Source of the DNA: Lytechinus pictus
Taxonomy: Eukaryota
DNA: 64,000 nt
Direction of reading: 5' to 3'
Assembly (NCBI RefSeq): GCF_037042905.1
Contig: NC_087252.1
Coordinates: 3,784,001 to 3,848,000, forward strand
Each line of letters begins with the position of its first letter. Positions within the stretch are counted from its first letter, which is position 1. The notes beneath the pieces are model-generated. The model did not search any database and had not been told where the DNA came from. It worked only from the letters and a program-made list of their open reading frames with translations. The position numbers were made by a program, and so were the translations under genes. Shown in pieces: positions 1 through 64,000 of the stretch.

Positions 1-2829
1 ATTGAGGACTTGTGATTTCCGACAAAGTGTACGGCAGATGTTGAAAATTATTATCCGAGGAGCATTTCATAATCTTTTGTCAACGATTTTCCCTCACTTA
101 GAAGCAGTGCAAATCATTGATTATTTTTTACATGTAGTTATCCCCTTGTTTCTCCCAAAATACATCATTTTTAAATATGCTAAGAAAAAAAAATAGCAAA
201 TTTGTTCTGGTCTAAAACAGTAAAAATCTGCAGGGTTTGATTCGTACAAAATATCTGAGAGATTCCTTGAATTATTAGTTTTTTCGATTTTTACTTATTA
301 ATTAAATCGAAATATAATTCCATGGATAAAATACTTGTACTTTCAGAGGAATCTTGACCTGAATTTTATTTTGGAAAATCTCCTTTTTTGTGGCCCCAAA
401 TATAATCCAAGATTTTGATTTATTTTTGTTTATAAAATATTTAATCCAAAGTCAAATGTCCTGAAACTTCACAACAATATTCTTCTTAAAGATATCTATC
501 TTACTAATGATATACAGCGAAATCCGAATGCTTTTTAAAATATATTTCAGAAGTTGAAAATCTCTTAACTGCCCATATGTAAGGTGCACAATATATTGTA
601 CTCTATTAAGCCCAAGATGTACACTACACATTGAAAGTGGAATTAGGCAGGCCTTGGAGCCGCCTCAACATGTACACATCAGCTTCCTATTTTGTATTGC
701 CAGACTGGACCGAGTCCACCTCGAAGATGATGAGAGTCTGAGAGTCTCGCAATTACCCCCATGGCAGCTGAACCATTGAACTTCAAATATTTATTGTTAA
801 AAATCAACGAGAAAAAGTCATCAAGGACATACCCAAGTGATTTTTATATCAGATTTTAAATTTCTGTACATAATTTACAGGAATTGTATAAAGGGATGAA
901 TAGCTTTGTTGAAAGTAGAAAATTTTGCTACAGAATGAGAGGTTCATGTGCATGTATGCCATATTTCCTAGTGTAAAATCAACAATACCTGAAAATTTTT
1001 AGATGAAATTGAAGTCATTAAATATCTATTTCTGAAAAAAAGTGGCAAATTTCAAGCCTTGTCTTTCATTGATTCGTTGATTGATTCATGTGCATGTAAT
1101 GTACAGTATGTATTTTTACACTTAAAGACACATTAAAATATAACATGATATAAAAGAGTATGAATATAGTCATAAAAGATGCAGGAAAAGTCATTAAAAG
1201 CTAGTTGGATCAGACAACCTAACATAGGGTTAAATATGTTAATGGCCATATACAAACTACAAAGAAACATACAAACCTTGGGATGAGAGTAGACAACAAA
1301 CTCTTGTGTAGGTTAGAGCAGTACCATGTGGTACACACAGAGCTCACTTGTATGCCTGCCAGAAGAATACCGTCCAGACACACATTCTCTTTCAGAAATA
1401 ATTTTTATTGACCACCAAGTCTATGAAGTTCAGGCCATTCCTTTCTGACTTATTAATTCCAATGAGAGGGACAGTGGTTTTCTGTTACCAGTTAATGAAA
1501 AATGGACAATCTACTTATCCTCCATGTCAAAATTCATTGAATACCCAGTATACCTTAATACAAAACAAAATTACAAAACAGACTTTCCACTTTAGATCGA
1601 GTTTGGAACAGAACTACAAATTTCGGAAATGGAAAAGACAGTTTTTGTTTAAACAGAAAATCACTATCCCTACAATAGACTTGAAATTCATCCTGAATTT
1701 GAATCCTGAACAGAATAATTAAAGTGAATTTATAAAAATAAAAAATCCAAATCTGGAACTAGTTTTGCCGAGGTTGATTCTGTTGGGACACATGAATCTT
1801 TTCAACTTTAATTGAAGTGGTATATAACATACACATGTATGTCCTGCATAATCTGGTTATATAAATGATTTTTGCGAATACTCGAGTTACGGAGTTGCGA
1901 AAGTCAACATATTCAAGTTGACCTACATTGTTAAAAGGGAAAGAAAATCAAGAACCATGGGGGAAAATTAAATCATACAAAATTTGCCGAAGGTTTATTT
2001 GCTTACACATAATCTGTCATGCAAATGATGCAGGACAAGTGGACCATTGAATGAAATAATTGGGAAGTTCGAATTGGACCAGGATCATCATTTACTTTGG
2101 GTTGTGTAAGTTTTTAGCAATCCTCTATTAAAGTTCTAGACACTTAACACTCTCACTTGTTAATTAAAATCCACAAACATTCTGTATTCAGTGGTGATTA
2201 AAAGTTGGTGAACCCCAACCAGAAAATGAACATGAAAAAGGTTCTGTCCTGTTTTAGATGTGTCAGGTGATGAAATATTAAGTTCAGTAAAGTTTGTTTC
2301 TCTGGGCTCTCTAAACATATTCGTGTTGTTTTCTACAATCAACATGAAGGAGTGCATTTTGTGGTGGAGTTCACTAACTTTTGAGCAAAACTGTATGGAA
2401 GAACTTTACTTAATGATGATCAATAGATCCTTCTCACAGACTAATTTGCCATCCAACGGTAACTGCCATGGTAACGCTGATCACCAGCCAATCAGAATCA
2501 AGCATACTAGACAAGTTACCATTGAATGGCAAATTTACCATAATGGTAACTTTTGATGCAAACGGGGCTCAGGTGGCGCCAATTAGGAAGCACCTTTTTT
2601 TGTTTCGTCCAGGGGCCTACAGTACTTCTGATTGCTTCTTCACAAATTCAGACTTATCACGGTGCAAAATTTGAAACGTAGGGCAATTCTTATTTTAATC
2701 CGAGCAATGCCTGCTCATGTATATCTCACATGACTTCTTGCAGTTTAGTTGCTCTCTAGGTTACTCCTGTAACATTGATTGTCCTGTCAGCTTTTATAGT
2801 GCAAACTACCCTGCTCTTTTTTCACTCAG

Positions 2830-4253
2830 GTTGGGATTCAAGAAAGCAGAGCTCACATCCAAGGAAGGAAAACACACTGAAAATATCAGGTGATGCATCA
2901 CATGACAGATCAAATGAGGATTTCCCAATCCAAACTGTTCTAGAAAACAATTCTGACCTATCTTCCAGAGGCAATTACTCAAGTGAGTACGACTCTTTTC
3001 TACAAAGGCAAGTGGATTATCCTCAAGAGGAAAGTGTGACTGACAGTGCTACCACTTTCAATGATCATACAGAAGAAATAACGGATTCAGAGGAACGCAG
3101 GGGGAAACGCAAAGCTGCCTTTCGAAAAACCCTTGATGATGGAGCAAGCCCATCGGGAAGCACTGGAAATGATGCTGAAGGAAAACTTTTCATCTGTGCA
3201 GTATGCAGTAGAGGATTTAAAGGGAGGCAAGCTTTGGATAGGCATATGAGAAGCCATTCAGAAGAGATGCCTCACGAATGTACAATCTGCAAGAAAAGAT
3301 TTTGGCAAAGATCTGATCTGAGGAAACATTTCCGAATCCATCCAGAGGGAAAGCCATATTCATGCTCTCTTTGCGAGAAACGATATTTCGACAACGCTAA
3401 TCTCAGAGCACATATGTCGGTTCATAGCAGGAAAAATCATCACCCTTGTTCATTTTGCAACGAGATATACGTGAGCAGGTCTGAACTTGATGCACATGTT
3501 AAAACCCATGCTTATGAGAAACCGTATCAGTGTACGGATTGCGATTTGAGATTTTGTAGCAATGCTGCACTCCAGGCTCATAAGAGAATCCATACAGGTG
3601 AAAGGCCTTTTATGTGCCCCTTTTGCAACAAAACATTCACCACACCTTCTCTGATGAGGACACATTTGAGAATCCACACAGGCGAGAAGCCCTATGAGTG
3701 TTCTGTGTGTGGCGACAGATTTTCCTTCAATACACAACTTGTGGTTCACAAGGCAAAGCACACGGGAGTGAAGCCGCACCTGTGCTCTATCTGTGGAAAG
3801 GGGTTTTGGAGAAAAACCTGTTTAAATAGACATGCAAAGACTCACGCAGGAAAAATTCAACACCCTAAAACCCACGTTGAGGAGAAACCGTACCAGTGTC
3901 CAGACTGCAATTTGAGATTTAAGCGATTTTCTTGGCTTCAGACTCATTTTAGAAGCACCCATAAAGAACAAAATATCAAGCCGTTTAAATGCCGCTATTG
4001 TCCAAAGGCATTTGCCACATCTGGTCAGCTCAAAGTACACACCAGAATGCACACAGGCGAGAAACCGTATGAATGCTCTCAGTGTGGTGACAGGTTTTCC
4101 TTCAACAACCAACTCATGGACCACAAGAACAAACACAGAGGGGTCAAGCCATATTCCTGCCCCGTTTGTGAGAAAGGATTTTGGAGAAAAAACTGTTTGA
4201 ATAGACACATTGAGACTCACGAGAGAAAAAAAGAGAGTGGTCTTGTACCATGA
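2830..4253 (+). CDS. C2H2 zinc-finger terminal exon 1 (Ser/acidic linker + 12 fingers); 5' exon(s) not in window
   Basis: ORF 2775-4253 has 12 C-x2-C-x12-H-x3/4-H motifs with TGEKP-type linkers. Polypyrimidine tract + CAG acceptor (AG 2828-2829, phase 1). The ORF segment upstream of 2830 is probably intronic. AATAAA at 4585-4590. Confidence 0.9.
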
Positions 4254-9750: not shown

Positions 9751-10025
9751 CAAGTGGTACATGTACAATATGTCACATTTATCTTGTGCTAAAACTGGAC
9801 CATCAAAAAGGTTTGGCCTCACATGATGATAGGGAGTTTTTTGCACCGTGATGCAGAACTCGTTAAAACATATAAAATGTATTTGTTAAATGCACTTTAG
9901 ACAACGGGCAACCAAGAATTCATTGTTGAAAATTGGTTAATCAAACAGCAGTTTTTCTGGGAATCTTGATATAAAACGAAATGCAAATATTTGCATTTTT
10001 TGTCAGCTCCGAAACTGCTGTTCTG

Positions 10026-10182: not shown

Positions 10183-10401
10183 CAGGTTCTCCAATTTTTT
10201 ACAAAGACCTCCCAGCTGTTCATTGTCCCTGGAAATGCATTTTCAATGTAATCACTACATGTATGTTGTTGAATTTGTTCTATGACGCAGTTTGAAAACT
10301 CACTAATGCATGTATATGAATTAGCCTTCCTAAACCTAACTATCTGGCAATACATTACCCATAGCCAGTTAACATGAAATAAACTAAAAACAACTGACCT
10401 G

Positions 10402-11657: not shown

Positions 11658-12248
11658 ATACCAAAGGATTTGATTAGAAGGACAAGAGCTGTCATGAAGT
11701 TGTATTAAAATTGAGTAGTATTTTTTTTCTCTTCAATCCTTACAAGAGGGATTTTATTTGTTCACATAAGTAACATACATGTACAAAACAAACAAATAAT
11801 TTCTTTTTAAGTAACTTTGAATTACTACCTTTAGGTCATAAAATAAATAGCATGAATCTGATGTTTTTCATTTCCAAAACATTTCCTTATATAATTTCTA
11901 TAGATTACAAATTGTGATATTGAATTGAAAATTGAATATCATTAACTATTTTGTTTTTTTACCTTGCACATTCATTTCCTTTTCTCATTTTCTTCTGTCT
12001 TTTCTCTTCTTTGTCTTTGTTTTCATCACCTTATACTATGCAATGTGCAAAAGACTACTTTGTCTGGAAAGGTGATTTTTGTCTGGGATTACTTTAAGAG
12101 TAAATTGACATTCTGTATCATTATGTTAGTTTCGTTTGAATTTACTTGGTGTGTAAAGAAAAGTACCCCTTCCCCTGCTCAATTCTGTTGCATGTGTAAT
12201 AAAGTGACTAGCTTTAGTGCAAATTACATTGGTCTTCTTTTTACTCAG

Positions 12249-13426: not shown

Positions 13427-14047
13427 TAATTTCATGACTTATGCACTTTTGATTGGTTTGCCGAAAAGAAATGAAAGTTTGGGTGATCCTTTTCAGGACC
13501 AACTATTGCTCGAGAAAGAGTTTTGATGGTCCTTTTCAGGACCAACAATCGCTCAAGAAAGATACATGGTGTACCCTGAAACCTACTACACTATTCTTCT
13601 TCATCATGGAAACCTTCAGAAGTTACACTTTAATGCCACCTCCTGAATAAACATGAATGAATTTATTGATTAACTTCCTTCACTTGACATGAACCTTTTG
13701 TTTTATAATATATACGATGATATATGATATAAAGGGAAATCATATTGAATGCTTATTCTCATTTTGCAGACATTCAAATATGACAAATTTGTGCTGCATT
13801 TCCAATAGCATAACAAATCGTGATTCAGAGTAAATCACCACAAACAAAAAATATCAAGCAGAAAAATAAAAAATTTTCCCCCAGAGTCATCAGAAATTAC
13901 CCCAAGTACATGTAGCAACTATGTTTGGATAAATGAACAAAGCATTTTGATCAAGACTCCAGTTCCAATGTCATGATGTAAATGATATTTTCCTGGCACT
14001 CCATATCAATATACCTAACATGTAAAATCTTGAAGATGTTATACATG

Positions 14048-14198
14048 TACCTCAGTCACTTGCTCTACGGCGGCCGTATGCCAAGTAAAAAACAGCCGTT
14101 TTATTCATTCTTAATCAAACTACCTATAAATGTAAAATGTTAAAAAGGCCATTTTCAACTCGCCGTACGGCCACCATAGAGCAAATGTGACTGAGGTA
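14048..14198. mobile_element. palindromic MITE; related copy at 39660-39820
   Basis: TACCTCAGTCACTTGCTCTACGGCGGCCGTA / TACGGCCACCATAGAGCAAATGTGACTGAGGTA. Confidence 0.65.
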
Positions 14199-14558: not shown

Positions 14559-14931
14559 TTAAACGTAACACTGAAATGCTGTAGTGTGTGAACTTACATG
14601 TAGCGCCCTGTGACAATACAGGTATTTAGTTTTGAACTATTTGGTATTGTATTTCCTGAATTATGGATGTGTATTAATTAATGTCAAAAAATCTATGCTT
14701 CCAGGCCATGGATTCAATACCATTTCAAAGTAATTTCAAAGTAATTGAGGAAAAGTATCAAAAATTGAATTGAAAAAAAAATGTGTATAAAAACTGTGTA
14801 TTTTCGCTGAAAAGGTGCCTTTGAATAGATTCGTTCGTATACATTTTGATTCATTGATTTCTTGAGAAACAGGGATGTGAAATTGGAAATGAGGAAGTAG
14901 AGTATCTTTCAAAATTGAGTGTAACCCTCAA

Positions 14932-16022: not shown

Positions 16023-16606
16023 TAAAGTCCACCCCAGAAAAATGTTGATTTGAATAAATAGAGAAAAACCAAACGAGCATAGCACTGAAAATTTCATCAA
16101 AATCGGATGTAAAGTAAGAAAGTTACATGTACAACATTTTAAAGTTTCCCTTATTTTTCACAAAACAGTGATATGCACAACCCGGTGACATGCAAGTGAG
16201 ACAGTCGATATGTCCCTCACTTTAATGTTTTTTTATTGTTTGAATTATACAATATATCATTTTGCTTTACAGATTTGACAATAAGGACGAACTTGACCAA
16301 GCCATATAATATTAATGCTAATTCTGCATGTTCAGGGAGGAATTTATCATTGTTTCACTTGACATTGAGGAGAAAATGAAAATATTTCATGTAATAAAAT
16401 ACAGAAGAAATAGTGAGTGGATGACGTCATCAGTCTCATTTTCATACCGACCAGGATGTGCATATTCTGTTTTGTGAAATTAAGCATAACTTTGAAATGT
16501 CATAACTCTTTTATTTTACATCCGATTTTGATGAAATTTTCAGGGTTATGATTGTTGGATTTTTCTCTTTTTAATCAAATAAACTTTGTTAGGATGGACT
16601 TATCCT
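16023..16606. mobile_element. Kolobok-like MITE, left end truncated
   Basis: Long internal inverted repeat CTGAAAATTTCATCAAAATCGGATGTAAA; right end GGACTTATCCT. Confidence 0.55.
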
Positions 16607-16640
16607 TTGAACTTAGGCTTCCCATGAGGACTTCAGCATA

Positions 16641-17219
16641 CAGTTGAGGCTAGAAGTTTATATACACCTAGGAAATTCAAAGAAAAGTGGACACTTGCCA
16701 AACATAAAATTTACTGTATCTTAAAAAATATTTGTGCCATCATGACGACTTTGACTGTATCACACTGTTTTAACATCAGGGGCTGAAAAATATTTAGGTG
16801 ATTACTTTTTCCCCAAAAATCTTCATTTTAAGATAAATTAAAAATAAAACATTTCATATTTGTGCTAGATATTTCAACACAAGCATTTCAGATTACACTT
16901 TTTTGTTCACTGGTGACATATCATGATAGATGTAATATTAATCATAGATTTGACATTTATATATTTCTATGAAACAATGTTTGAAAATATAAGAAACAAT
17001 AGAATACATTTGGAATGAACATTATTTTTTTTTCTTCAAAGAAAATTCCACCTGAAATATACTTTAATCCCAGCGGAATCCCAATCATGTGAAAGAGCTT
17101 AATAACCTCTTGATGGTAGTATTTATATTTCTGAAGGTATAGTAAATTTTTAAAATGTTTGGCAAGCCAACAAATTTCTCTAAATTCCATGGGTGTGTGT
17201 AAACTTTTGGCCTCAACTG
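16641..17219. mobile_element. Tc1/mariner non-autonomous element (TA TSD)
   Basis: TA|CAGTTGAGGCTAGAAGTTTATATACACC ... GGTGTGTGTAAACTTTTGGCCTCAACTG|TA. Confidence 0.8.
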
Positions 17220-17346
17220 TATGTGTCATTGACAAGTAGAGATCTCTCCCTCTCTCATCCCTGCATCACTTCCTTGTCCGATTCCTCTCTGTATTTCCTT
17301 GCTTTGCATTCTTGACCCTCTGAACCATAGATCCCCTCTCCCTCAT

Positions 17347-18134
17347 TTTTGTCTCACCTGCATAGCAGAGTGAGACTATAGGCGCCGCTTTTCCGACGGC
17401 GGCGTCAACACCAAATCTTAACCTGAGGTTAAGTTTTTGAAATGACAGCATAACTTAGAAAGTATATGGACCTAGTTCATGAAACTTGGCCATAAGGTTA
17501 ATCAAGTATTACTGAACATCCTGGCTGAGTTTCATGTCACATGACCAAGGTCAAAGGTCATTTAGGGTCAATGAACTTAGACCATGTTGGGGGAATCAAC
17601 ATCAAAATCTTAACCTAAGGTTAAGTTTTTGAAATGTCATCATAACTTAGAAAATATATGGACCTAGTTCATGAAACTTGGACATAATAGTAATCAAGTA
17701 CTACTGAACATCCTGTGCAAGTTTCAGGTCACATGATCAAGGTCAAAGGTCATTTAGGGTCAATGAACTTTGGCCAAATTGGGGTATTTGTTGAATTACA
17801 GCCATAAATTTGAAAGTGTGTTGGTCTAGTTCATAAAACTTGGACATAATAGTAATCAAGTATCACTGAACATCCTGTGCGAGTTTCAGGTCACATGATC
17901 AAGGTCAAAGGTCATGTAAGGTCAAAGAACTTTGGCCACGTTGGGGGTACATGTATTTGTTGAATTGCCATCATATCTCTATAAGTGTATTGGTCTAGTT
18001 CATAAAACGTGGAAATAAGAGTAACCAAGTATCACTGAACATCTTGTGCGAGTTATAGTAGTTTTCAAAATCAGCACTGCTGCTATATTGAATCGCGTGA
18101 TGCAGGTGAGACGGCCAGAGGCATTCCACTTGTT
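17347..18134 (+). mobile_element. Helentron/HINE (DINE-1-like) non-autonomous element with internal tandem repeats
   Basis: Sub-TIR GTCTCACCTGC (17351-17361) / GCAGGTGAGAC (18102-18112), short GGC tract, ~3.5 core units of ~160-190 bp (CAT(G/A)AAAC(T/G)TGG at 17478, 17670, 17832, 18001), T-rich flanks. Confidence 0.7.
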
Positions 18135-19429
18135 AATACTCAAAATGTATTTATATCTTTTACACCTCTATCTTTACCCCCTTTACCTGTCTATACCAGA
18201 GAATTTTTTTTTTTAGCTCACCAGCCCAATTTAGCTATGTTTTTTTTTTATATTCATTGGACTTTATTAAAATGTCAGGGGCTCTATAGGAAATTTCAGG
18301 GGTGAATTTGCCCCAAGCTGCCATGTAATATTTTCCCTAGTCTTTATCCCCCCCCCCTCTTTTTCTCATACTTCCCCTAAATATATCCTCCCCCCCCCCC
18401 TCTCTTGATCTATTCATTCTCCTTTCTGTCCCAAGCAATCCAAGTCATATGGATTAATGTTTGTATTCATTTTTAAAACAAAACATTCATACAAACTGCT
18501 ACTAATGGACAACAAATAATGTCGCAGAGAATTGCTTTAATACAATTTCCCATCAATATAATTTTCTTAAGAATTTTGCATTTAAGTCATAAGAAATAAC
18601 CATATATCTATGTTGCATGACCAGAAACGAAATTCATCATAAAAACTTGAACTTTTGTTTTTTGGGGGAGGCATGTTTAAGAAACCTGAAAGCAAAATAG
18701 TAACATTCACCTTGAATATCATCTCAATTCATGGGGCCTGACTTGTAGAGTTTAAATACAAATTTATATTGATCTAAATATCCTACCCTTTCTTACACAA
18801 CAATGTCATTGATATGACTTAGGCAAGATCATAAACTCATTAGGACATGATGGAATCATCGTGTCATGAATTGGTCTACAATCGGCATATTGCCCAGTAA
18901 CATCTGAAAATGGATGACTTTGCCCTAGTCAAATGTATTGGAACCACATAAATCTGTTCAAATTTGGATAAATCATTTTATAGACTTATGTTCTGCATAA
19001 CCTGGTCTACGGTATGTCTTTGACTTGGGCAAATATTCAACTTATGGAAGATCCTCTTTTATATAAACAAGATTATCAGTACCATGAATAAGAAACAGGT
19101 GCATATCTTGCTTTGTTTCTGAACAAGTCTCATGACACACCCATCGTACAAAGAGTTGTGATTGATCCATTTAATCACAAGGATGATCAGCAAGACCAAC
19201 ATCTAACGTGAAAGTGTCTGTTTTCTAAATGATTAATACCAAATCTTTTCCATGCATGATAGCCTTGACAAATCAAGGTGCTCATCTTTGTTTTCAAGTG
19301 ATACTGTGTACAATTCATGTATGAAGAATGATGACATTGGTGGATTCCCTTACTTTAGAATATTTGAATCAATCACAACTCTTGGTAAAACCAGGCCCCG
19401 GACTGTACTACATGTATCTATTCCGTGTG

Positions 19430-24664: not shown

Positions 24665-26644
24665 CAAATTCAAGTCAATTCAGAGACCAATGCGAGGCAT
24701 ATTTCGGAGAGGCATTTTAGCGTTTTTTAATCGGCGGTTTTCGCCTTATGTATTATTTTCGTTATTTCTGAATGACCCACTGATAATCCCGACATCATTA
24801 CCTTTCCATTGATATATAATAAGACCACATTCATAATCAATATATTTCTCCTTTCAGTAAAATACTTTTTCTTTTATTTCCATGATAATAATAATTCTTA
24901 CTTACCCAGGGGAGTAAGCCCTTCATTCGCCATCTAACAAAGAGTTGCAATTGACCCTATCAATTTCAACTATGGATGGCCAGCAATGTTAACATCTAAA
25001 ATGCATATATGTTCAAAATATTTTCTAGATATGATGTATGTATATTCATACATCTATCGTTCTCTTGAAGAATCAGTGTGATTCTCTTTCTTTGCTTTAA
25101 AGGAGATTGAGCAAATTTCCTGTAGGAATTTTAATTAATTGGATCAATCGTAAATCTTTGTAAGACCGGGCCCTGGTGGTATCTCATAGAGCAACATATA
25201 CTGGTAGTATGAAATATGAGCTATAGGTGCATGTGCACGACAGTTGTAGTGTGCATAAAGCAGCAGAGGAGGGAGGGGGGCAGGGGACCACCCCCCCCCC
25301 CCATGGCATTGCAACTCCCATTGAATTGCAAAGTTACCATGCAACAAAGTACTGGTGGAATCTCATAAAGCTATGTGCAGAGATGCCAACCGTTTTTGCC
25401 GTATTTGTTACGTTTTTTCACCCAAAATACGGCGTTACTTTTTTTCTTTGTAAAATTTGTTTTCTTAAAATTTCGATCGTGTACAATATGCATTGTGTGT
25501 AGCTAGCTGGGTGTTTAAGGCGAGTGTGCATTACGATAGGTAGTGCGGTAATAAATTACGCATTTCTACTAATGTATAAATCCCTAATTTGGTGGTGCTT
25601 TGTGTGCTGGTGCGCGCGCGCGACAACCGATACAGGAGTACTGAGCATAGCTAAAAATTTGGGGGAAGTTGGGTCCGTTGCAAATCTTGCGGATTGAACC
25701 AATCTCATGAAACTTGGCACATAGATTAGTCTTGGTGTGAGGATGTGCAAGACACATTTTTCACGTGTCGGAAACTGCGTTGTCATGGTAACGGGCGGGG
25801 ATATTAATCACCTTCAGTGATATTTCTAGTTTTTCTTTAAAAAAATGTATCATTTGTTATCAGTCTTGCATGACATTGTACATGTAGCTGAAGAAAAGAA
25901 AAGACATTGACCAAGATTGAGCACAGTAGATTTGATCCAGAGTTGTCATTGTCTGGTAGTTTTTCAGCAAGGCTTTTTGTTTTTTATTTACAGGGAATAT
26001 TGTGAAGAAGATCAAAGAGACACATTTTACCATTTCCACAGATGGCAGCTCAGATCGCAGTGCTGATGAACAACTGTACCCAATCATCGTGAGATTTTTT
26101 TGACCATGATGAAAGACAAGTAGTCAGTGTTTTGCTTGAAATCGCAACTACCACACAGCGATCAACTGGAGAGAACATTTTCCTAATGATTGACAGAGTC
26201 CGTAAGGAGAACAGTGTCCCATGGGAACGGGTTTTGTGTTTTTCTGCAGACAATGCAGCCGTCATGATGGGGAGCCTGACTGGGACAGCTGCTTTCATAA
26301 AGAAGGCAAATCCTAACATCTATACACTGGGATGCCTGCAGAGATGCCAACCCTCCCGATTTCATCGGGAGGCTCCCGAAAATTCATCCCAACTCCCGCC
26401 CTTACGATTACCATCCTTATCCTCCCGAAATTACAATTTATTTTGCATTGATCAAATTGGATTGGAAGTACATGTATCGTCTGCTAACTTTAGCATGTAG
26501 AGTGCGCCCTCACCCTTGCTCGGACAACATGTCATCCAGCTAAACCCTTCAAAATTATATCAAATCTGCTGGTGAGAAGTTTTGGTGGTATTTTTCATGT
26601 GAGTAATATTGTTAACTGTAATACATAGATTAAGAGTGAACATT

Positions 26645-27439: not shown

Positions 27440-27998
27440 CCTGCTGGAGTGTAAATCTAAGACTGTCAAGTTCACAGGACTTTTTTACTGGTTACATGTA
27501 GATTTCTTTTAAATCACCAACTCTAGTTTTACTCTATCTTTCTGTTCTTACATGTGACACCGTAACCATCTAATTCTTGAAATTTTACGAGATATGGTTG
27601 GATTATTTAAAAAAAAAATTTGTTAGAAGATCCCTTTTTTCTAATAAACAAGGCTAACTATATTACTTTAATCAATGTATACCAGCTAGATTTGGTTTTT
27701 TTTTCATGCATTGATATATTTTTTTTTGCTTTCAAACCGTTACACTTGCCAAAACTGTTTTCTGATTTGAAGTTTTGGCACTTTGTGTTTGCACTCTTTC
27801 ATCTTCTGCCAGAATGAAAGTTTTGATATTGTTTTTTACTTTATTTTTTTCTTGTGACAAGTACAGTATTGAAATTTTTTACAATGTTTTAAGATTGTTA
27901 AAATCTTCTCATGCAATGATGGTTTTAAACCAATATGCCAGGTTAATTGTTCCTATTTGTAAGGGGTCTCCTTTTATCAGTGTTTTTTGTGAACATTA

Positions 27999-34034: not shown

Positions 34035-37000
34035 GGTAAGAGGAATATTGCTTACAAATATATGTACAAAATGAGGGGAGAATAGAAGAAAAGTACCTGC
34101 ACTATACTAAAGAGGATAATTCCTCATTATTATTGTTGAACAGGTACTTTTCTTCTATTGTCCCCTCATTTTTTTTACATGTAAAAATGCATATTTGATA
34201 TTTTTCTTTAATTTTTATGTTAAAAAAGTGGGAACAATGTTTCTTTAAAAACATGTGAAATGCTCCAAAATAAGGGTCAGATTGCACCAGAGAGCATCTA
34301 GAAACCCCGGCCGCAAGGGTCGAGCGCTCGAGATGTGCGCTACGCGCACATAATTTGGTGTCGGTTGCAAATCCTCCCTTCTGATTTCCAAAAGTTGGCA
34401 TCTCTGTGCCTGTGCCATAGACTGCATTTGGCAGCTGTGAAGGGGGCACAAGAGCTCCCATTTGCTCCAGAAGACTTGCTGATCCAAGTGTATTATTACT
34501 TGGAGAAGTCTAGCAAACGCCACAAAGAGTTCAACAGCTTCCAAACCATGAGTGGTGTTCAAACTCATTCAATTTTGCGACATGTATGTACAAGGTGGCT
34601 CTCCCTGGAAAATGCATTGAACAGACTGCTGGAGCAATGGACCCCACTTCAGCTATACTTCCAATCTAAAGCCGAATCTGGAAAGAGAAAATGTAAGGAA
34701 TCATCAGTCCCTCCCCAGTCAAAGAAGCAAAAAGTCAGCCACGATGGTCCAGATCTCTCTAAAGATGGTTCTGTTATAGGCTCAACTCAAACATCTGCCA
34801 AGTCATCTGCCAAGTCATCTGCCAAGTCATCCGCCAAGACATTGGCTTGTACTAACCCTTGTGCAATCAAGAAATGTGCATCTTCCGTAAGTTTGAAAAA
34901 AATAATGAGTAAAACCTGACAACTTCAGACCATGATGTACTCAATTTAAAATTAATTATACCATTATACCATGTCAAACATTTAGTAACATGTACTGCTT
35001 TAGCCCATTCAGTACCAGACCATATCAAAATGTGGACCGATGTACAATCATTCTTGATTGACTAAAAAAAAAAATTCTAAAGAATTTACCAAAGAAACAA
35101 TTACTTAAAAAAAGAACCCCTCATTTGTCAGTTTAAAGGTGCAATGACTAATAGAAAATTATAGGCAAAATAATCTGCAAATTCTTAAATTGGCAACATA
35201 TACAAAGATTGAAGATCACTATTCTAGGAGCAAATTGGCAACTTTATCGATTGGAAAGGATTGCCAAATGTTTATATTGTCTACACAAAACATCAAGTTT
35301 CACCAAATTGCCATAAAAATAAAGAAATTAATGTTTCCAATTTGATGATTAAATACTGATTTATTTCCTCAGAAATAAATCTAAGTGTGATTTGTTACTC
35401 AATGAGAAAAGGTTGTTAAATTTTACCTGATCTTTTTCTTCACTTTGTCTATTTTTATAAAAAAGATGACCACGAACAGTTCTGCCAATCCAACCAAGAA
35501 CTGGAGTATTATCAAGCATCCTATTCTGGCCTCTTCATCTTCACTCACTCTGAGCAGTGCTATGAAGTCCTTCAAGAAACCACATACTTCAGTGAGTACT
35601 TCATTTGCATCTGAATGATCCATTTAATTTTGTTTCTGCTAATACATGTAATCAGTCCATGATTGATGCTTTTTAAGCCATTCATTGCTCTTTTAGTCTT
35701 AGTGGATATTTGTTCTTTTATAACTTTTCATGTATAATGTAAATCATCATAAACTGTAAATCTTGGTTAGAAATCAAATATAATTCAACAACCAATGCAC
35801 CCTGTAGGCCCTGTACTCTTTAGTTATGACGTTTTCCACTGGTGTTTCTAATACCATGACCGAAGCAAAGAAGAAAAGAACCCAGCATTGAATAACTGAG
35901 TGAATATTGAATTTTATAAGGAATAAGTCCATTCATTGAAATATTTAAAATGGAAACAAATTGCCATGAAATAGTTAAAAGAAATCACAAATGTTCATTT
36001 TCCCACTCCTTTTTTAGGTCAAAGTAAGCACTACAACCACTGCAAAGTCTACAACCAAGTCTACAACCAAAGTGAATCTGGCTTCTAGTAAGAATCCTCC
36101 TGCAAGTTTGGGTAAAGATTCATCATTGAGTGGTCAACAAGAGTACATCACAGGGTACTGTAAAGTTGTTTGCCGGTTCAAGGTCACATAGTCACACCTT
36201 CAGCAAGAATGGGGTGACACCCAAGAGTACCAAGTCTTCAACACAAGGCAGAACTGTTGCTGGGTCATCTCAACAGAGCGCAAACAAGGCTGGTGGAATC
36301 TTCAGCAAGTTTCAGGATAGGAATAAGTTGTACTGCTTGTTCATCCAAAATGTCATCCCAATGTACAATCATCTGAATTTGGAGCTTCAAGAGGAAACTC
36401 CAAAAATACATCTACTGTATGACAAACTACAACGCCTTCTCCATAATCTGTTAGTTCGCTTTGTCAAGCCTACTGTCATAGCTGGTGCGTCTAAAATCAG
36501 CTTGGTAGACTACAAATCTGAAATGAATCAGAAAAGCAATGAAGACTGGATTCTAAGAAATGCAGTCCGAGAATCTCTTGCCTCGGGGAAGCTCACCCAG
36601 GATGAAAAGACAGAGTTCTTTGCAGCAGTCCGAAAGTACTTTCTGTCTGTGTGCAATTATGTTCTGGCCAAGTTCCCTTTTGAGGGTGAAGTCATACAGC
36701 ATGCCCGTGTTGCAAATCCAAGGATGAGGATGGAGACAAGCTTTGCTATAGCGTATCTTACTTTGTGAGAAGGTTTGGGTACATGCAAGATAAGCTGGAT
36801 GAACTTGAATTGGAGTATGGCAACTTCCAAACAGATCCTCTTCCTGGCATCCCTTTGGAGGAAAGAGCTGACACAATATGGCTTCTCATTTCCGATATGA
36901 ACGATACCTCTCTGAATCAGAAATATGTGTACCTCCCAAAAGTCATGCTCCTGGTGCTCTCTATCGCCCACAGCAATGCTTCAGACAAAAGGCTTTTTAG

Positions 37001-44001: not shown

Positions 44002-47000
44002 CGGTCATTTTCACAATATATGGTGTAACTCTGAAATTTCAATGTTTTTATCTGTAGCAGTCTCATAAAGCCACATAATTTAAAGATGCTTTGGCATATG
44101 AGTAACCTCAATGAGTGCTACCTCGGGTAGCATAGACATCTTCACTCATTACTTCGTTTAATTTTGGCAGGCACATAAGTACCCTAAGTTGCACCTTTTT
44201 TGTGTACATAAAATACATAGACTTTTTTTGGAATGCCCTTTCTTATTTCTGGAATGTTGATGATTACTTTTGTTATGCAGAATGTGAAGTTAGATGTTCA
44301 ATGAAAAATACCAGATAGGTTTTTAGTGTGACTGCTTCTTTATTTCTGAGAACGGGGTGGTCCAATTTGTTGTTTCGGAGGCTTCATTTTCCGTTAACAA
44401 TAGCTAACAAACTTTGTATTCCGAGCATTGGTTTTCAAACAAATAAAATTCTGCTCCCTAGGACCTTTATGCAACATTTGAAGTATAAACTTCCAAATAA
44501 AAACAAAATATCTTGGATCACACTTCTTTTTACAATTTTTTCAAAGCCTAACTGATCAAGGTTAATTTTCCGTTAACTGTTTTGAAGCCTCCGAAACAAA
44601 CTTTACAGACTGCCCATATAAATATGAACGAAGGAACTTGTCCAATCAATACATCACAATGTAGTATATGGACACCTAGTTCACCTGTCAATAAATAGCA
44701 GAGATATTCCTTGCTGTTTGAAAATAAGAGATGATACTAACTTTCCGTTAACAATTGAAGCCTCCGAAACAGTCAAATCACTTGTTTTTATTTTTTTGTT
44801 ACTTCAGTCCAAAATTTGTAGGTTAAATTTGTATTATAATCATATGTTATGTTGTATAGACTGGCCTCAGGTAGAAATTGTATGAATATCAATTCAATTT
44901 TTTTCAGAATTCGCTGATAACATAAAAATTCTGTTTAGGAGGCTTCGAACATAAGTTAACACATGTTTTTTTTTGTTATTCTAAATTCATAGATAAGAGA
45001 GTGTTCACATTTTATTTTTTTGTTGTTGGTTTTGATCTACTTAAGAACAGAAACATATTTGATTTTATAATTAATAATATTTCTTAAGTTATACCTGAGC
45101 TAAGTATTTGAGATGGGATTTTCCACTCATAAAACATGCATTTCCCTATTTCTAACTCAGAATATAAACATTAGATATCAACTAAAAGAAAGAAAAGTCA
45201 CACATATAAACCATGTAATGTTTATTAATATTGTAATATACAGTGGCTCAAAATAAAGCTCTGCATTTTCCCAAATTGACAGGCATCCTAAACTTATGTT
45301 AACACTTGTTTCGGAGGCTTCAAACAAGAGTTAACACCATATTTTGTGTTATTCCAATGTCCTGGATAAGAAAAATTAGGCATTTTTTCAACAGCATGTT
45401 TGGTTTTGATCTACAAAATTACAGGAATGAGTATTTCTTCATCAGATTTTCAAATTTTTAATGATATACAAAAGAACTTGTATTTGTGATTGAATTTTAC
45501 ATTTGTAAACGTGTGTTATCCTCAATCAAATTCAGGTTACTCAGTGTGTAGATACATGCATACTTACACACATACGCACAAATACAATATTTAGGAACAT
45601 TTTAATATACAAAGATTTAAATAAATCTTTGCATTTTCTCAAATGTTCAAGGTATCTGAGACATGTATGTATACATGTACATGTAAATACATGTACATGT
45701 AAGTTCTATGTTTCAGAGGCTTCATTCTCTTTGTCATACCATTATAAGTTAAGGTTTTAAGTTTGTCATCCAAAAACCATAAATTGGTGGACAGACCATC
45801 CTTTTATAGATTCTGAGGAAGTAATAGTGTTATTACCACAAATGACTAGATCATGATGAACATGTATTGGTATGGAGAAGTTTATGTAAATATTTTAAGC
45901 AACATCTAATAGCATATAGATGTATCTTCAAGATAGGCATGAATACCAAATACAGGGTTCTCATTCTCCAAGCACTTAGTCCATAATAATACATTTGCTT
46001 TTTTCATTATCATTATTTTATCAATATTTTCTGCACAATTTGTTTTGATGGAATTGTGAATTCAAGTATTTTCAAAATATAAAAGTCTGTCACTACAATT
46101 TATTTCAATGAGCTCTTGGTAATAAGTACATAACAATTGGCATTACACTTTTTGAGTAATGTATGAGCAATGCAGAGTGACACAGCCTTATCATGTTCGC
46201 AATCAGTGATTGTGAATTGTGATCATCCATTTTGTACATTGATTTCTTCTGAAATACAGGTTGGTTAGACTGTGACCAGCCACCCCAAACCTACAATAAG
46301 TCACTAGGGAAGGTTCTCTGTAAATAGCCAGAATATTATGTTTTTGTAAAAAAATAGAAAAAAAAAATAATTGGAAAGAGTAATTTTTCTTCTTCATATA
46401 CAGTCAAAATCTCAAGCAGTAAACTTAGATAGAAAATCAGATAAAATAGTCTTGACAGAAGTGTTTGTGGACTGTTTGGACTTTTCTCTGAGATCGCTGC
46501 ATCTTAAGCTTGAATGGACCCTAAACTTTGAACATTGTTTTTCCCTATTTAAAAAGTTTCTTCTGCATTCAATCAATGACTTACATGTATGTGGGTTATA
46601 ATGGATTAATTTTGACATGTTATATACCTTTTAAAAGCTTGAGATGAAATAATTTAAACTCAATAAAAATTTCATAATTCATTTTGGCAACATATACACT
46701 GTAGTTGGATTCGGGATGGCTGGTCACAAATTACCTATCAAAGCAATGTTAATCCCATTAACTTTCTCAAATAAAATTACTATCTGTGAGAGTTGTATCA
46801 GTTTGCCTTGAAGGATTTTCATTTCAGTTTTTAGAATATGATTTGAAATGATTTGTTTATAAATACTTAATGTACAGCTTACAATGTATGCCTTGATTGT
46901 CTTTTTAAAGAAAAAAAAGTGGGAAGAAAACCAAGTGCCAAAGATATGGTAACATGAAAAAAGATCAAGATGAAAGCAAAGCATGATATAAAACCTTTCA

Positions 47001-48908
47001 AGTATAATTTGATTAATTTTGTGAGCTTAAGCTCTAGGTTGGTATGCAGACAGTACTTGTGCCATAAATAAAATTACCCTAACTCCATTCACTACAAGTG
47101 ATTCCAATACCAACAATTGTTTTGAATTATAATCATAACTTAATACATGTATTGTATGTACTTTTTTAAAAAGCTTGTTGTTGAATGATGCAAAGTAAAG
47201 TGCTATTAAGCACTAATTTGAAAGTGCAGTATTAATAAATTCAAGTCCCTAGCATAGAAAATTTCACTAATCACACATACATGTACATGTTTGCTCATGG
47301 CTATGTTCCTTAACACTTCCATTTGATAAAACAGTAAGGAATAAATATTCAATTTTATATTGTCATATCAACAATATGGTCGAGGTGCCGCGGCCAAGTG
47401 GTCTAAGGTGCCTTGCTATCCATGTACTTGGAAAGTCTGGAGTTTGATCCTCGGCCGTGGCACCTATGCCCGTTAGCAAGGCATTTAATTGACAATGCTC
47501 TTTTATCCTGCATTCAAATAAATGGAAATGCTATTGGTATTAACTAGGTGTGCATTTGTTTAAAAAAAATCATACATTTCTAGTGTCAATTCAATTCAAA
47601 TCCAAACTGCCTTTTAATGTGTGACTTTGATGCACTTACTTTACTTTGGTACTTTGGTATTTTGGGTAATGCACATCTACCTAACAAGCAGAATTTAAAT
47701 ATAGAAAATATTTCCTGGACATGTTCATTGTAAAAATATTGGATATTACTTTAATATGCATGTATATGTTACAGAAACTGTTGGACTATTAACATCATTG
47801 AAGTCTCCGAAACATACACTGTTGTTACCTAAAGGCATACAAAAAATAATTGTCAACCAACTTTCTGCATTGAACTTAACATATAATTCTGGATTTTTTT
47901 ACAATTGGATTTAACATAATAATAAACAAGTGTTAAAATTGAAATAAGCTGTTAGCTATATGATGGAAAACGCAATATGTTAACATGATTGAAGTCTCCG
48001 AAACACTCTGGGAACCCTAGCAAAGCCACTGAAACACAAGTTTCAGTATTTCATCACTTTGTTTATGCATCATGAATATTCTTTTCTGTATGAGATGTAC
48101 TTCTATTACTATATTCCCTTTAAAGCTGAACTATTACCTATCTTGGCACCAAGGCATTGAAATATGATGTCTTTGTGCAGTAGTTAACATTCGTGAATTA
48201 CATTTTCCCATTCACGAGACATTAGTTTGTTTGATTTTGTTTACATTCAGTCTTATACTGATATGCAATTTGAAAAAGATAGATTTGTAAAAGTAATCAA
48301 CTTAAATAAGGGACTTTCATAGTGCTAACATGACTGAAGTCTCCGAAACACATATTTTTGTTAACTGAAGCCTCCGAAACACACTTGGGAGAAATTTCCA
48401 ACTTTCTTATTTGGTATCTGATTTCCATGGGATTAGTGTTAGTAATTAACCTTCATGGAGAAGTAAATGTACAATAATTTTTGCTTTCCTCTTCCTCTTG
48501 GAAGACATGTAATTTTAAACACTTTGTTGTCAAAATCCAAATTTGTGATAAATTTCAAAAACTCATAGAAATTTTTAGAAAACTAATAAACTTTGAATCC
48601 AAAACTTTTAAAAACCTCAAAGAACATTTAATTTGTGAATGAAAAAGTGCAAATGAAAATGTTTTCCACGAAAAAATTTGTAATTTTGGTAATGAAATCA
48701 AAAGGCTGATTTTATTCAATTTTTCTCATTTTTCACAGTTGCACATAATTATTTTGAGGTTTCTCAAGTAGATTAAGCTCCAGAACAGACAGAAATGAAG
48801 AATTTAGACATTTATTGACCTGTTTTTATTAGAAATGTTTAAGAAAGTCCATTTTGAAATTTTGATCTTGAATTTTGAAAGTTACACCCTTGACCGTGAA
48901 AAAGACCA
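44002..48908. mobile_element. 4.9-kb TA-flanked non-autonomous DNA element with dispersed GAAG(C/T)CTCCGAAACA motifs, inserted into a MITE (43870-49031)
   Basis: Imperfect ~35-bp TIR CGGTCATTTTCAC..GGTGTAACT / AGTTACACC..GTGAAAAAGACCA; TA on both sides; the flanks rejoin as a MITE of the 10817 family. Confidence 0.65.
47383..47545 (+). mobile_element. tRNA-derived SINE
   Basis: GGCCAAGTGGTCTAAGG (A-box-like), GTTTGATCC (B-box-like), then GCAAGGCATTT core. Confidence 0.6.
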
Positions 48909-49069
48909 TACACAATACATCATCTAGAAATTTTTTTGAACAAACATGCATTTTAGATGTTGACATTGATAGCTTTACATACATGTAGTTGCGGTTGATT
49001 GGATCAATCGCAACTCCACGTAAGACAGGACCTAGATGTAAAAATCAATTAATGACTACAGAAACTTAC

Positions 49070-49865: not shown

Positions 49866-51508
49866 CAGAGCTGCCAACCTTGTGCAAGCAAAAAAAGGAA
49901 TCATTATGGCCAAAAAAAGGAATTTCCAACAAAAAAAAGGAATGTGTTAAAACGAACCTTAAAACTACAAATTTCTTGCAGGGGCACCAAAATCAGTTCT
50001 GGTGAACATTTTTAGGGCTCCATTTTTCTGGGGCTTCCTTTCCACTTCTAAAATAATTCATTGTTTTATGTTGAGTTTCCTGACAAAACTACCAAATTGT
50101 AGACTAAGAGAAAAAAAAAAAAAGTTCACATCAATTCAGACTTCTCTTCCCAAGTAACATTGTTTTTGCCAAACAGTACCCTTTAAAATTAAAGTGTCAT
50201 AAAATGAAGTGTACATGTAACATTCCACAAATATAAAAAAATTATTCATAAATCAATCTAATCTAAAATTCAAATAGATCTATAGATAAGAAGTTGAAAT
50301 CATTCCACAAAAGTCCCATCGTAAATCACTTCACGATGTGCACAGCTCAGCCTCAATCACACTGCACGCACACTCAATCATCCCCAGCAGTGACAGCACT
50401 ATAGAGCAGACATCTAGGCCGCCAGAACCGGGGAAGAAATATTCCCATTCCTGCTAAACTGAATGCTAAAGTGCCGACTTTTTTAATGAATTCCAAAGGC
50501 AGGACATCTCCCTAGTATAAATCATGTGAAACTATCAACAAAATGTTGAATATCACCCAGAATTATTACTTCAGGGGACAATGAAGAGCTTTCCAGGTCT
50601 TTTCAAAGCCGAATTCATCGTATTTGTTTGATACGAGTTGATGAAAATTAACCAGACAGTACCATTATCCGAAGGGAATTGATATTAATCAATTCAAGAA
50701 AATAGCCTCAAAATTTCATTTCTTTATCACTACAATTAATTTTAAAGTATATGAAAAATATCTTTTGACGATTCAATCTTTTATATGATGAGTATTTTTG
50801 TAAAATTTTGCAAATGGAATAATAATTTCCCTCAAACCTCCAAATCCCCCTCCATACTACAATTTGGGAATTACCCTACCCAATTCATCGTACTCCTCAC
50901 TCTGCGCTGCAAGAACAAACGTTGGCTCCACTCACGTAGTGTTGGCCCTTGCGTAAAGACAACGTACCGTATTAGCAGTAACGTTAGATCTAACATTCGG
51001 CGGAAATCCGATTTTCGGATCGTTTTTTTTTTACATAAAACATCGCTTTATAGGAAAGAAATTACATGCAAATTTAAGATAAAATATATAAAATTCTAAA
51101 ATATCGTACCTTAGACCGCAGTTACTGTTATTTCCTTTCAAATGATGATCAAAACATAATCATCCTCGATCCTTTCTTTGGTCATCGTAAGTTGCCATCT
51201 TGGATGACGTCATCATCCTTATAGACGTATTTACCAGTCGCTATACATCGCGATTCGTGCCATGCATGCCGCTCGCATATTCAACTAACGTATATGTACT
51301 TGCACGCTATCAAATTATTAAAGTGCGTTGGAAAACCGGCCGGCGGGCGACTACGCACGCGCAAGTACCAGGCTCATCTCGGGCTCAACACGCACTACAC
51401 ATTATCAAAATTGTCAAAAAACGTAATTTGAAAAGAAAAACCATAATGCCGTAATTTGAATGAAAAAACGTAATGATTACGGCAAAAACATAATGGTTGG
51501 CAGCTCTG
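49866..51508 (-). mobile_element. hAT element C (non-autonomous; relative of A)
   Basis: TIR CAGAGCTGCCAACC; perfect 6-bp TSD CGGGCA (49860-49865, 51509-51514); both subtermini resemble element A ends in reverse orientation. Confidence 0.85.
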
Positions 51509-52468: not shown

Positions 52469-52896
52469 TTAAACAAGCATTGGAAACAAAATGTACCCTA
52501 GACAAGAATTACACCAGAGAAGCAAACAATCAAAAGACAACTTATGAGTAAGTTTCCCATGACCTCCCCATCCCCCACAGGACCACACGTAGTGTTAGTG
52601 CAAAAAAGTACATCCTTTTATCAAGTATTTTAGTCCTTATATACCCTGAAAAATTGGACCGTAAAACTGTAGCTTTCCTAGCGAAAAATACCTTTTTCAT
52701 TATTTTAGCGTTTTTTGACACCCTTATTACATGTACCTTTAGGGCTGTTGAATATCAATAACGTCTTTATCGCTATTCGCTTGTTTTTTCCACTTTAGTG
52801 ATATCGATAACCTTTCTCTCGTCGATAATATCCGCTTTTATTTAGGAACACAGTGATTCTCGCGATTTCATGGAAACAGTCTTTTGAAAGTGGCGT

Positions 52897-53236: not shown

Positions 53237-54031
53237 AAGGTAAGCCCCTGGGCTCCCTGGGTTCCCTGGGTTACCAATACGTGTGTATATTGTGAATCAG
53301 ATGACAATAAAATCAAATTATTTCATGGAAAATACATTTTAATATTACAGTGAGTGAATAAATATCGATAGAATTATGTGAGAAAATAGTTTAGGCTCTG
53401 ATTTTGTTTGAGAAATAAAAAAAAGTGAAATTCCAGCTAACTTTTTGAATCACTAACTGTACTTTCTAAACCTTATTTTTTGTATAAGTATATAGAGGTG
53501 CATATCTCATTTTGTTCACTACACAGGATGTTTTCAAAAGCAAAGCTTTGCTGTTGGGGATATTGGCACCGACTAATAAATGTGTCAATATTTTTGCGTG
53601 TTATGAAATTCGCGGCCGATCGGCAATTCGCGAAAATAAAACCCCCGCAAAAATAACAGCTTATACAGTAATACATGCCGCCGCGCACAGAAAAATCAAG
53701 CCATAGAAGTCGTGTGTTGTGGACACCAGAAGTGGGATCGCAGCACGCGCGACCTACTAGTTAGAAATCCACTGCCAAACGCGGTTCATGGTGCGAGGTA
53801 TACATGTACTAACCTCGCACATTGTGAGTGCAATAATACCTAGGCTAACGTTAGACAGGAATAACCATCGTTTCTGGGGATTTATTCAACAATTTCTGAC
53901 ATTTTACTATCATCCCCATTCACCGACGGTAGTGTGTTAGTGCGAGCCTACATGTGTAATCATTTCTTCCAATTCGGGCGAACGGGTTTATAGATTTTTT
54001 TTTTTTTTTAATTCTAAATGATATACATTAC

Positions 54032-54478: not shown

Positions 54479-54733
54479 ACGATATTTCTGAATTTTATAC
54501 ATTTTTTTCGTAAATATGGATGAAACTTCTTTTTCATAAAGACATAATGTGACATTTTATGTACAAAAAACGATCGGAAAATCAGGTTTCCGTCGAATGT
54601 TCGATCTAACATTACTGCTAATACGTTGTCTGTACGTACGGGCCTCCAAGCTCTTCAGTCTATGTATCGGTGAGTGAGCCAACGCAGTTCAGCGGAACAA
54701 CCAAAATACAGAGACTGAAGCATTTGGTCTAGG

Positions 54734-62019: not shown

Positions 62020-62129
62020 CAGACATAAAATGCTATAATTATCCCATTGCTCAATAAGAGAGCAGCGCTGACCACAATCAAAACCCTTTACAATCGTGTT
62101 TGGATAGGAAATATAAGAGTACACTTATG

Positions 62130-64000
62130 TGAAAAATTTTTACAATGTGAACATTCATAACGTTTTTCTCCCGTGTGTGTTAGCAGATGATTTTGTAGAT
62201 TGTTGTATTGTGAAAATTTCTTCTTGCAATGTGGACATTCATAAGGTTTTTCACTTGTGTGCACAAGCAGATGGTTATTGAGATTACTCCTTTGTGAAAA
62301 TTTATTTTCACAATGTGAGCATTCATAAGGCCTTTCTCCTGCGTGTGTATTAGTAAATGAGATTTGTCATGACTCTTCTGTGAAAATTTCTTTTCACAAT
62401 GTTCAAATTCATAATGTTTTTCTCCTGTGTGTGTAAGCAGATGATGTGCAAATTTCTTTTTACAATACATGTATGAACATTCATTAGGTTTATCACAAGT
62501 GAAAGCAGATAAGTGTTGAGAGTACTCCTTTGAACAAATTTCTTTCTACAATGTGAAAATTCATACGTTTTTTTTCTTCTGTGTGTTACAAAATGAGATT
62601 TGAGCTGACTTTTAAAAAAATAATTCTTGTCACAATGTTAACATTCATAAGGTTTTTTTCTTGTGTGTGTGTGGAGATGAATTTTTAAAGAACTTATCAA
62701 TGCAAATCTCTTTTTACAGAATGAACAGTCAAATTTTTTATCTCCTTTGTGAGTCAAAAGATGGCATTCAAGATCTCTCTTCTGTGAAAATCCTTTCTCA
62801 CAGTAGTCACATCCATGCAGTGCATTGACAGATGACCATCCAGACTATTTTTACTCATGAACATTCATGAGATTTTATTCCTGCGTGTGTGTTAGAAGAT
62901 TTTTAAGTTACACTTTAGTGAAAATTTCTTTTCACAGTGTGAACAATCATAAGGTTTTTCACTAGAATGGGTTGCAAGATGGATATTTAGATCGGTTTTC
63001 TGTGCGAATTTCTTTTCACAATATGAACAATCATGAGGTCTTTCTCCTGTGTGTGTTAGGAGATGTTTGTTGAGAGCACTCCTATGTATAAATTTCTTTT
63101 CACAGTTTTCACATTCAAAAGGGTTTTCTCCAGTGTGTGTTAGGAGATGGTGTTTGAGAGTAGTCACTTGTGAAAATGTCTTCTCACAGTGTGAACAATC
63201 ATAAGGTTTTTCACCTGTGTGTGTTAGGAGATGGTTGCTGAGAGAACTCCTTTGTGAAAATTTCTTTCCACAATGTGAACATTCATGAGGTTTTTCTTCT
63301 GTGCGTGTTAGCAGATGAGTGTTGAGAGTACTCCTTTGTGAAAATTTATTTTCACAATGTGAACATTCATAAGTTTTTCCTCCTGTGTGTGTCAGAAGAT
63401 GTCTATTAAAGTTACTCTTATCTGAAAATTTCTTTTCGCAATATGAACATTCATAAGTTTTTTTCTCTTATGTGTGTAAGAAGATGTCTATTTAACTTAA
63501 ACGTATGTGAAAATTTCTTTACACAGTATGAACATTCATAGGGTTTTTCACCAGTATGGTTTGAAAGATGGATATTTAGATCGGTTTTCCGAGCAAATTT
63601 CTTTTCACAATGAGAACATTCATGAGGCTTTTCTCCTGTGTGTGTTAGGAGATGTTTCTTGAGAGCACTCTTCTGTGCAAATTTCTTTTTACAGATTTCA
63701 CATTCAAAAGGTTTTTCGCCTGTATGTTTTAGCAGATGATTTTTTAGAGTACTCCTTTGTGAAAATTTCTTTTCACAATGTGAACATTGATAAGTTTTTC
63801 CTCCTGTGTGTGTCAGAAGATGTCTATTAAAGTTACTCTTATCTGAAAATTTCTTTTCGCAATATGAACATTCATAAGGTTTTTCTCCTGTGTGCGTTAG
63901 GAGATGGTTGTTGAGACTACTCCTATGTGTGAATTTCTTTTTACAGTTTTCACATTCAAAACGTTTTTCTCCTGTGTGTGTTAGGAGGTGATTATTGAGA
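62130..64000 (-). pseudogene. tandem 84-bp C2H2 zinc-finger array, decaying toward its 3' end; continues beyond the window
   Basis: About 22 units like [28 protein letters not shown]. +1 frameshift in an A-run at 63458-63464, frameshift/stop at 62892-62905, many lesions below 62890. The upstream part may still be coding. Confidence 0.8.

Follow-up and report, generated by a model that had tools for sequence, protein, structure and literature searches.

A TA-bounded palindrome in excess in Lytechinus pictus DNA, probably a uniform type of transposon scar

Introduction

Why does one eight-base palindrome, TACATGTA, recur along a stretch of animal DNA, and what has written it there? The question is raised by 64,000 nucleotides of Lytechinus pictus (NCBI RefSeq assembly GCF_037042905.1, contig NC_087252.1, positions 3,784,001 to 3,848,000 of the forward strand), here called the window, which holds C2H2 zinc-finger genes, an intact long interspersed nuclear element (LINE), broken hAT-like transposases and many short inverted-repeat elements. 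An earlier note on this DNA had counted about 26 copies of the word by eye, with about two expected, and took them for footprints left by the excision of Tc1/mariner transposons. The excess proves to be real, and its probable source is transposons that left behind scars of one unusual and uniform kind.

Abundance of the word

The window is animal DNA of 36.5% GC with a CpG observed/expected ratio (o/e) of 0.54. Among the 120 homologues listed for one of its zinc-finger proteins, a Lytechinus pictus protein aligns pairwise with the N-terminal part outside the fingers, which makes a sea urchin likely. It contains 27 exact copies of TACATGTA at 24 loci, which bears out the count by eye and adds one copy to it, at 46582..46589. 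Dinucleotide shuffles gave 1.14 copies on average and four at most, and 27 was reached in none of 100. When the motif was collapsed in the window before training, Markov models of orders 1-5 predicted 1.2-2.2 copies. With the motif kept in training the predictions were 2.3 (order 3), 3.8 (order 4) and 8.9 (order 5), values that are circular. The 8-mer count against a Markov background that the earlier note had proposed, made here within the window, upholds the enrichment at every order from 1 to 5, and TACATGTA is about 15 times commoner than chance allows.

By count the word tops all palindromic 8-mers of the window, and it is by far the leading TA-N4-TA word (p ~1e-22). Single-base variants at its outer positions have only 1-5 copies each, compared with 27 exact ones, so the word is strictly TA-bounded. 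Across the window it occupies 24 of 4497 TA sites (~0.5%), and the loci show no clustering (p=0.50 and 0.59), as if drawn at random from the TA sites. Local CpG depletion shows no link to them in the window (medians 0.41 vs 0.46, p=0.26). Its absence from intact coding sequences, remarked upon earlier, stands as a count (none of the 24 loci lies in the five intact open reading frames (ORFs), 8565 bp, with 2.7 expected by TA count), but with P=0.056 avoidance of these frames is suggestive only.

Origin of the copies by insertion at TA

The direction of change can be read where a repeat carrying the word has a sister copy in the window. Alignable sister copies cover ~13.3 kb and 827 TA sites, and they include four sites of the motif. 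At each of the four the word is a gain that no sister shares: 6 bp, CATGTA, were added at a TA that is thereby duplicated. The first site (16124..16131) belongs to an inverted-repeat element and lies in its left arm; the 6 bp are missing from all four sister arms, including the right arm with its empty TA at 16503..16504. The second (17948..17955) lies in a tandem unit of ~160 bp, whose single homologous unit, next to it, is empty (TA at 17785..17786); here the gap comprises the 6 bp and one G of a G-run. The third (48980..48987) is in a copy of a miniature inverted-repeat transposable element (MITE). Both window sisters lack the 6 bp (empty TA at 24971..24972 and, in the second copy, at 10862-10863), and the family consensus is empty as well: built from loose ends in 44 contigs of sequencing run X10 and 30 contigs of run X11, it runs straight on past the TA.

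The fourth site (62466..62473, minus strand) lies in a decayed zinc-finger unit, and the 6 bp are missing from four of four aligned units, of which two have TA at this place (63022..63023 and 63863-63864) and two a TG/CA variant. The gain is in frame and turns C-S-Y-C into C-S-Y-M-Y-C, so that CxxC is widened to CxxxxC. The surrounding array (62116-64000) is a C2H2 zinc-finger array on the minus strand, decayed and with frameshifts.

Thus all four sister comparisons made in the earlier note hold as 6-bp gains. That note would have given up its explanation had the CATGTA-containing state proved ancestral; judged by empty sisters in the window, the state is derived at every testable site. Places that carry the word include arms of repeats, the spacer of a LINE and a zinc-finger unit in decay. 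Since the density among alignable TAs (4/827) agrees with that of the whole window (24/4497), no separate origin has to be assumed for the 20 loci that lack a sister. Among these, known from the word count and having no sister copy, are 129..136, 9758..9765, 10256..10263, 11776..11783, 13907..13914, 14042..14049, 14595..14602, 19409..19416, 34176..34183, 35643..35650, 47144..47151, 52728..52735 and 53801..53808; the word count also gave 25879..25886, upstream of a hAT-like transposase fragment.

Sharing between individuals

Reads were consulted for 42950-55800 in 4 of 15 listed runs, as contigs only, and repeats dominate the resulting tables; run X7, with a small word share, does not enter the evidence. 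Runs X10 and X11, which belong to one study and are possibly related to the source of the assembly, yielded contigs that span 45462-47114 with five gap letters in all, cover 47169-47514 gap-free and cross 50212 with added letters only. A missing CATGTA would appear as six deleted letters, so four loci are common to these other samples: 45671..45702, 46582..46589, 47278..47291 and 50212..50219. Being shared, they are not an artefact of assembly, and the scars are real and inherited.

Two of these loci carry tandem units. At 47278..47291 the scar is followed by a second unit with one mismatch. At 45671..45702 four hits (45672, 45678, 45688 and 45694) form a doubled unit inside a perfect 16-bp duplication, and for this reason we count 24 loci and not 27. 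Tandem units at 2 of 24 loci exceed the 0.26 expected (p=0.03). They had been taken for repeated hits at one site, a conclusion that the data do not support: the cluster is one 16-bp duplication, and slippage and re-insertion explain the doubled units equally well. Re-insertion adjoining an old footprint is documented for Stowaway elements (PMC1925063).

Among 12 of 928 indel rows from the reads none lies at a motif, and these rows and 15 of 633 joints contain no occupied allele, a sample with almost no power. When metagenomes were scanned for the 48980 MITE in its filled state, no matches came up, and viral scans for two window repeat motifs gave none each. A scan with a triple unit returned three viral loci, in each of which TACATGTA is confined to one local run.

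The same word in other lineages

A metagenome scan with a window repeat motif brought up 120 loci, together 328 kb, from another organism, whose DNA has 43% GC, a CpG o/e of 1.05 and no blastn match to the window at 1e-8. There, TACATGTA occurs 15 times with 5.4 expected and ranks 8th of 136 TA-N4-TA words, an excess weaker than in the window. The sole testable site of the 15, L080:6916, is a clean gain of CATGTA at TA relative to six empty sisters. This organism also has TA-flanked inverted-repeat elements with CAC...GTG ends (L051 645-1401, L077 1236-1982 and L080 1244-1368). One apparent CATG-ended element, in L064 (2572-3943), was rejected, as its CATG is internal to a larger repeat family.

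In Phytophthora the word is known as motif-1, M93 or AM-20, with 12,070 upstream regions in three species and 4150 occurrences in P. infestans promoters (PMC3520976, PMC3597505, PMC11134190). The likeness to the window lies in the same word and its great abundance; the difference is that the Phytophthora motif was published as a transcription-factor site. A footprint origin was raised for it and then dismissed on the grounds of too high an abundance and of conservation (PMC3520976). A second enriched Phytophthora palindrome, M94 or TACCGGTA, stands alongside M93 and differs from it only in the centre (PMC3597505). Both palindromes fit a two-plus-two footprint between TAs, and one might speculate that TACCGGTA is what a CC-ended element would leave.

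Among the listings opened, the literature matched TACATGTA only as this Phytophthora motif, and the literature searched, which included few subscription papers and bioRxiv supplements, yielded no genome-scale account in animals. In the lancelet genome paper and its one supplement, the first two matches per search term show no CATGTA or footprint.

Excision of TA-duplicating transposons as the probable cause

What, then, inserts CATGTA at TA? In our judgement the copies are probably excision footprints of elements of the IS630-Tc1-mariner group. Such an element would insert at TA and duplicate it, as is established for the group; its transposase would then cut a few bases inside the ends, so that short 3' overhangs stay on the chromosome, which is likewise established; and in this genome end-joining would close the gap and leave TA-CATG-TA. 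Three cut geometries could give this product. In geometry (a), overhangs of 2 nt (CA), one at each end of any CA...TG element, would both be kept by fill-in. In geometry (b), the 3-nt overhangs of a CAT...ATG element would anneal on their central AT. In geometry (c), the 4-nt overhangs of a CATG-ended element would be fully cohesive and could be ligated directly. Minos footprints are a six-base net gain as well, made of four terminal bases plus TA; they resemble the scars in the size of the gain, and a Minos-like origin would differ in needing a CATG-ended element. We tentatively favour geometry (a), because the search turned up elements with CA...TG ends but none that end in CAT or CATG; needing no special family, it also suits recurrence in distant lineages, and it would accord with the second Phytophthora palindrome TACCGGTA. 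Geometries (b) and (c) would better explain the uniformity of the scars, at the price of a family not found in the sample.

The window has one clear TA-flanked inverted-repeat element, at 16639..17222 (element proper 16641-17220), which is non-coding and has CAG...CTG ends. Compared by eye with the Sleeping Beauty end (primer in PMC5224488), each of its ends agrees at 22 of 27 bases, and the first and last two bases of the element are CA and TG. Its presence demonstrates that this genome harbours TA-duplicating elements with CA...TG ends; as a donor it is only a candidate. A weaker case of a TA-flanked inverted-repeat element lies at 59132-59596.

Known systems resemble the scars in part. Tc1/mariner elements are cut inside their ends, and non-homologous end-joining (NHEJ) leaves 2-4 terminal bases between the TAs (PMC6943129, PMC3878927); such footprints consist of 2-4 bases from the start or the end of the element and vary by cell type (PMC6943129). 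Tc1 of Caenorhabditis elegans shares with the window the duplicated TA, a scar made of CA and/or TG and even the exact word, since PMC3520976, with reference to Eide and Anderson 1988, counts taCATGta among the rare footprints of Tc1. The difference is that the worm leaves mostly a scar of four added bases (+4) and TACATGTA rarely, while in the window +6 alone is clearly enriched, and its scars are inherited and shared between individuals. Sleeping Beauty shares the NHEJ scar between two TAs, and an element end like its own occurs in the window. The Stowaway elements of Triticeae also left inherited footprints between TAs, recognised in natural alignments; there, five footprint types are found at one site and occupied alleles are known, whereas the window has one uniform word and no occupied allele was found for it (PMC1925063 for Stowaway). 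Sailor (DD82E) was rejected, as it has a TATA target duplication and ends in GT or CC (PMC8533490), compared with TA and CA/TG here.

Several observations weigh against excision. The first concern the spectrum of products. C. elegans Tc1 leaves the +4 scar in 73-78% of cases (78% of somatic excisions; PMC12632400), and the Sleeping Beauty scar is +5, from a 3-nt overhang (PMC6943129, PMC3878927, PMC8151067). In the window the +4 words (TACATA, TATGTA) number 59 with 48.9 expected (p=0.087), which is not significant, and the +5 words (TACAGTA or TACTGTA) 12 with 9.0 expected, not significant either; window sister copies show no clean TA-duplicated +4 or +5 scar. The background of 6-mers is high, so that a modest +4 excess is compatible with the word counts. 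Nevertheless, the spectrum is non-canonical, with +6 as the only clearly enriched product, and it agrees with neither the +4 predominance of Tc1 nor the footprint of Sleeping Beauty. The CAG ends of 16641-17220 would canonically leave a +5 scar.

The others concern the missing donor. A CAT- or CATG-ended element was found neither in the 64 kb nor in the 328 kb of the second organism, which is a small sample, and no donor family was found in the window or in that organism. Scars stand to recognisable TA-flanked CA-ended elements as ~24 to 1-2. No occupied allele (TA-element-TA) exists among the window sisters, and the CA...TG element still sitting at a scar site, which the earlier note suggested looking for, was not found. 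There is no base preference in 10 flanking positions at 23 sites, a comparison of low power, and at the 20 of 24 loci without a sister the origin as a gain is assumed. What stands of the first explanation as Tc1 excision is therefore the TA-duplicating 6-bp gain and a CA...TG element in the window; the product is not the usual one of Tc1. Given the disagreement with the canonical Tc1 and Sleeping Beauty spectra and the want of an occupied allele, we do not assign the scars to a named family.

Alternative explanations

The same points suit a serious rival, which we consider unlikely: a hit-and-run micro-insertion, in which a host enzyme or tamed transposase cuts TA and repair adds CATG plus a TA copy, or in which an element comes and goes within one germ-line generation. 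It would account for the uniformity of the product, which +4 or +5 scars do not accompany, for the occupied allele and donor family not found in the data examined, for the indifference to flanking bases at 23 sites (again with low power) and for the same word in unrelated lineages, namely the second organism and Phytophthora promoters. On the other hand, TA duplication together with CA/TG is just what IS630-Tc1-mariner ends supply, and the search for occupied alleles was nearly powerless. We know of no enzyme that cuts at TA and adds a fixed CATG. In a broader form, which seems rather improbable to us, a micro-insertion process common to distant eukaryotes would write CATGTA at TA continuously, at ~4% of the substitution rate per TA, through a tamed transposase or a dedicated repair route and with no inherited transposon needed. 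If so, germ-line indels would include a major class that has gone unrecognised; as the six added bases carry no stop in the codon contexts tested (YM, HV or TC), two-residue protein insertions would be possible, and the abundant Phytophthora AM-20 motif, later used by PsMyb37, could have arisen by this kind of mutation.

Could selection have built up the word as a transcription-factor site? TACATGTA is bound by PsMyb37 of Phytophthora (PMC11134190) and is given as the preferred site of the Irx homeodomain (PMC3520976, citing Berger 2008); the Phytophthora motif data (PMC3597505) and the lack of copies in the five intact ORFs (P=0.056) point the same way. However, the sites arise as whole 6-bp insertions with TA duplication, in single repeat copies and in a decayed exon, and they are unclustered and partly in repeats. 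Selection could keep some scars but not make them, and we regard it as a very unlikely source.

Iterated palindromes of the HIP1 kind are written into coding sequence by substitution and kept there. A palindrome of that kind was rejected here, since none of the 24 loci falls in the five intact ORFs and the word arises by insertion.

Trivial sources, barely credible for the excess as a whole, are largely refuted for single copies and not for tandem ones: slippage can double an existing unit, as at 45671-45702, but the empty sisters hold no CATG to copy, so that a first copy is beyond its reach; CpG decay of a word containing CG would suit a CpG-poor window (o/e 0.54), but is excluded as the source, since precursors number 0 and alternative decay products show no enrichment (4 vs 3.7 and 0 vs 1.3); and an assembly or linker artefact is contradicted by the contigs of two other samples, which span four loci without a 6-bp deletion.

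Rate of formation

Returning to excision of TA-duplicating transposons, the decay of the scars bears on how fast they form. With microsatellites and duplicate arms masked, the excess over background amounts to 21 exact copies and 22 one-mismatch words (63 vs 41), and the latter ratio of observed to expected is attained by 0-1 of ~530 matched 8-mers at each of three orders. If scars form and decay at constant rates, the two classes should be in excess to the same degree; a recent burst, from which few decayed copies are expected, is disfavoured. We infer that formation has been steady and continuous rather than a single burst, although a single burst long ago, if suitably dated, would lead to an equal ratio. 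Per TA, the implied rate would be ~4% of that of substitution per base, which amounts to one scar for every ~340 substitutions. As the 22 excess one-mismatch words comprise 12 transversions and 10 transitions, this estimate is rough. Under an assumed mutation rate of 1e-8 and a genome of 0.9 Gb, it would correspond to ~0.03 scars per gamete, a high but not extreme flux. The 'very large past flux' once suggested is thus not required, and the decay pattern fits a modest steady rate.

Some further words may be decayed scars or a second scar type. TACATCTA/TAGATGTA occurs 12 times with 2.7 expected, at sites such as 14954, 16927, 37236, 45917 and 49033; four of the 12 come from one foldback element and two lie in transposase-like frames. 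TGCATGTA/TACATGCA occurs 10 times with 2.9 expected. Other palindromes of the form TA-XY-Y'X'-TA have at most six copies, several of them inside repeats.

If the excision origin is true, a single 8-mer would be a countable fossil record of germ-line transposon excision, an event otherwise almost invisible in genomes, and its exact and decayed copies would yield the rate and history of excision for any lineage. The uniform +6 product would point to an undescribed donor end or to a lineage-specific end-joining route. Because a scar amounts to a known transcription-factor site and leaves the reading frame intact, it could supply variation both in regulation and, by two residues, in proteins. For the most abundant promoter motif of Phytophthora, the footprint origin dismissed in print would also come up for discussion again.

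Other features of the window

The LINE (26603-31763) has an open ORF1 (278 aa frame) and ORF2 (1256 aa frame) and adjoins a hAT-like fragment at 26093-26340. It carries TACATGTA in non-coding parts only, perhaps inherited from a master copy; according to the word count, one scar (26469..26476) is in non-coding DNA just upstream of ORF1 and the other (27493..27500) in the spacer between ORF1 and ORF2. Two broken hAT-like transposase regions, in several frames each, stand in tandem at 32283-37166.

Foldback structures are also present. At 23033-24668 there is a near-perfect foldback of 1.6 kb with arms 87-98% complementary, and a smaller one (99%) lies at 52896-53237. The 3.7-kb element at 50944-54644 has long inverted ends and nested repeats inside, among them a TTAA-flanked element (~51707-52472) that is very high-copy by read depth.

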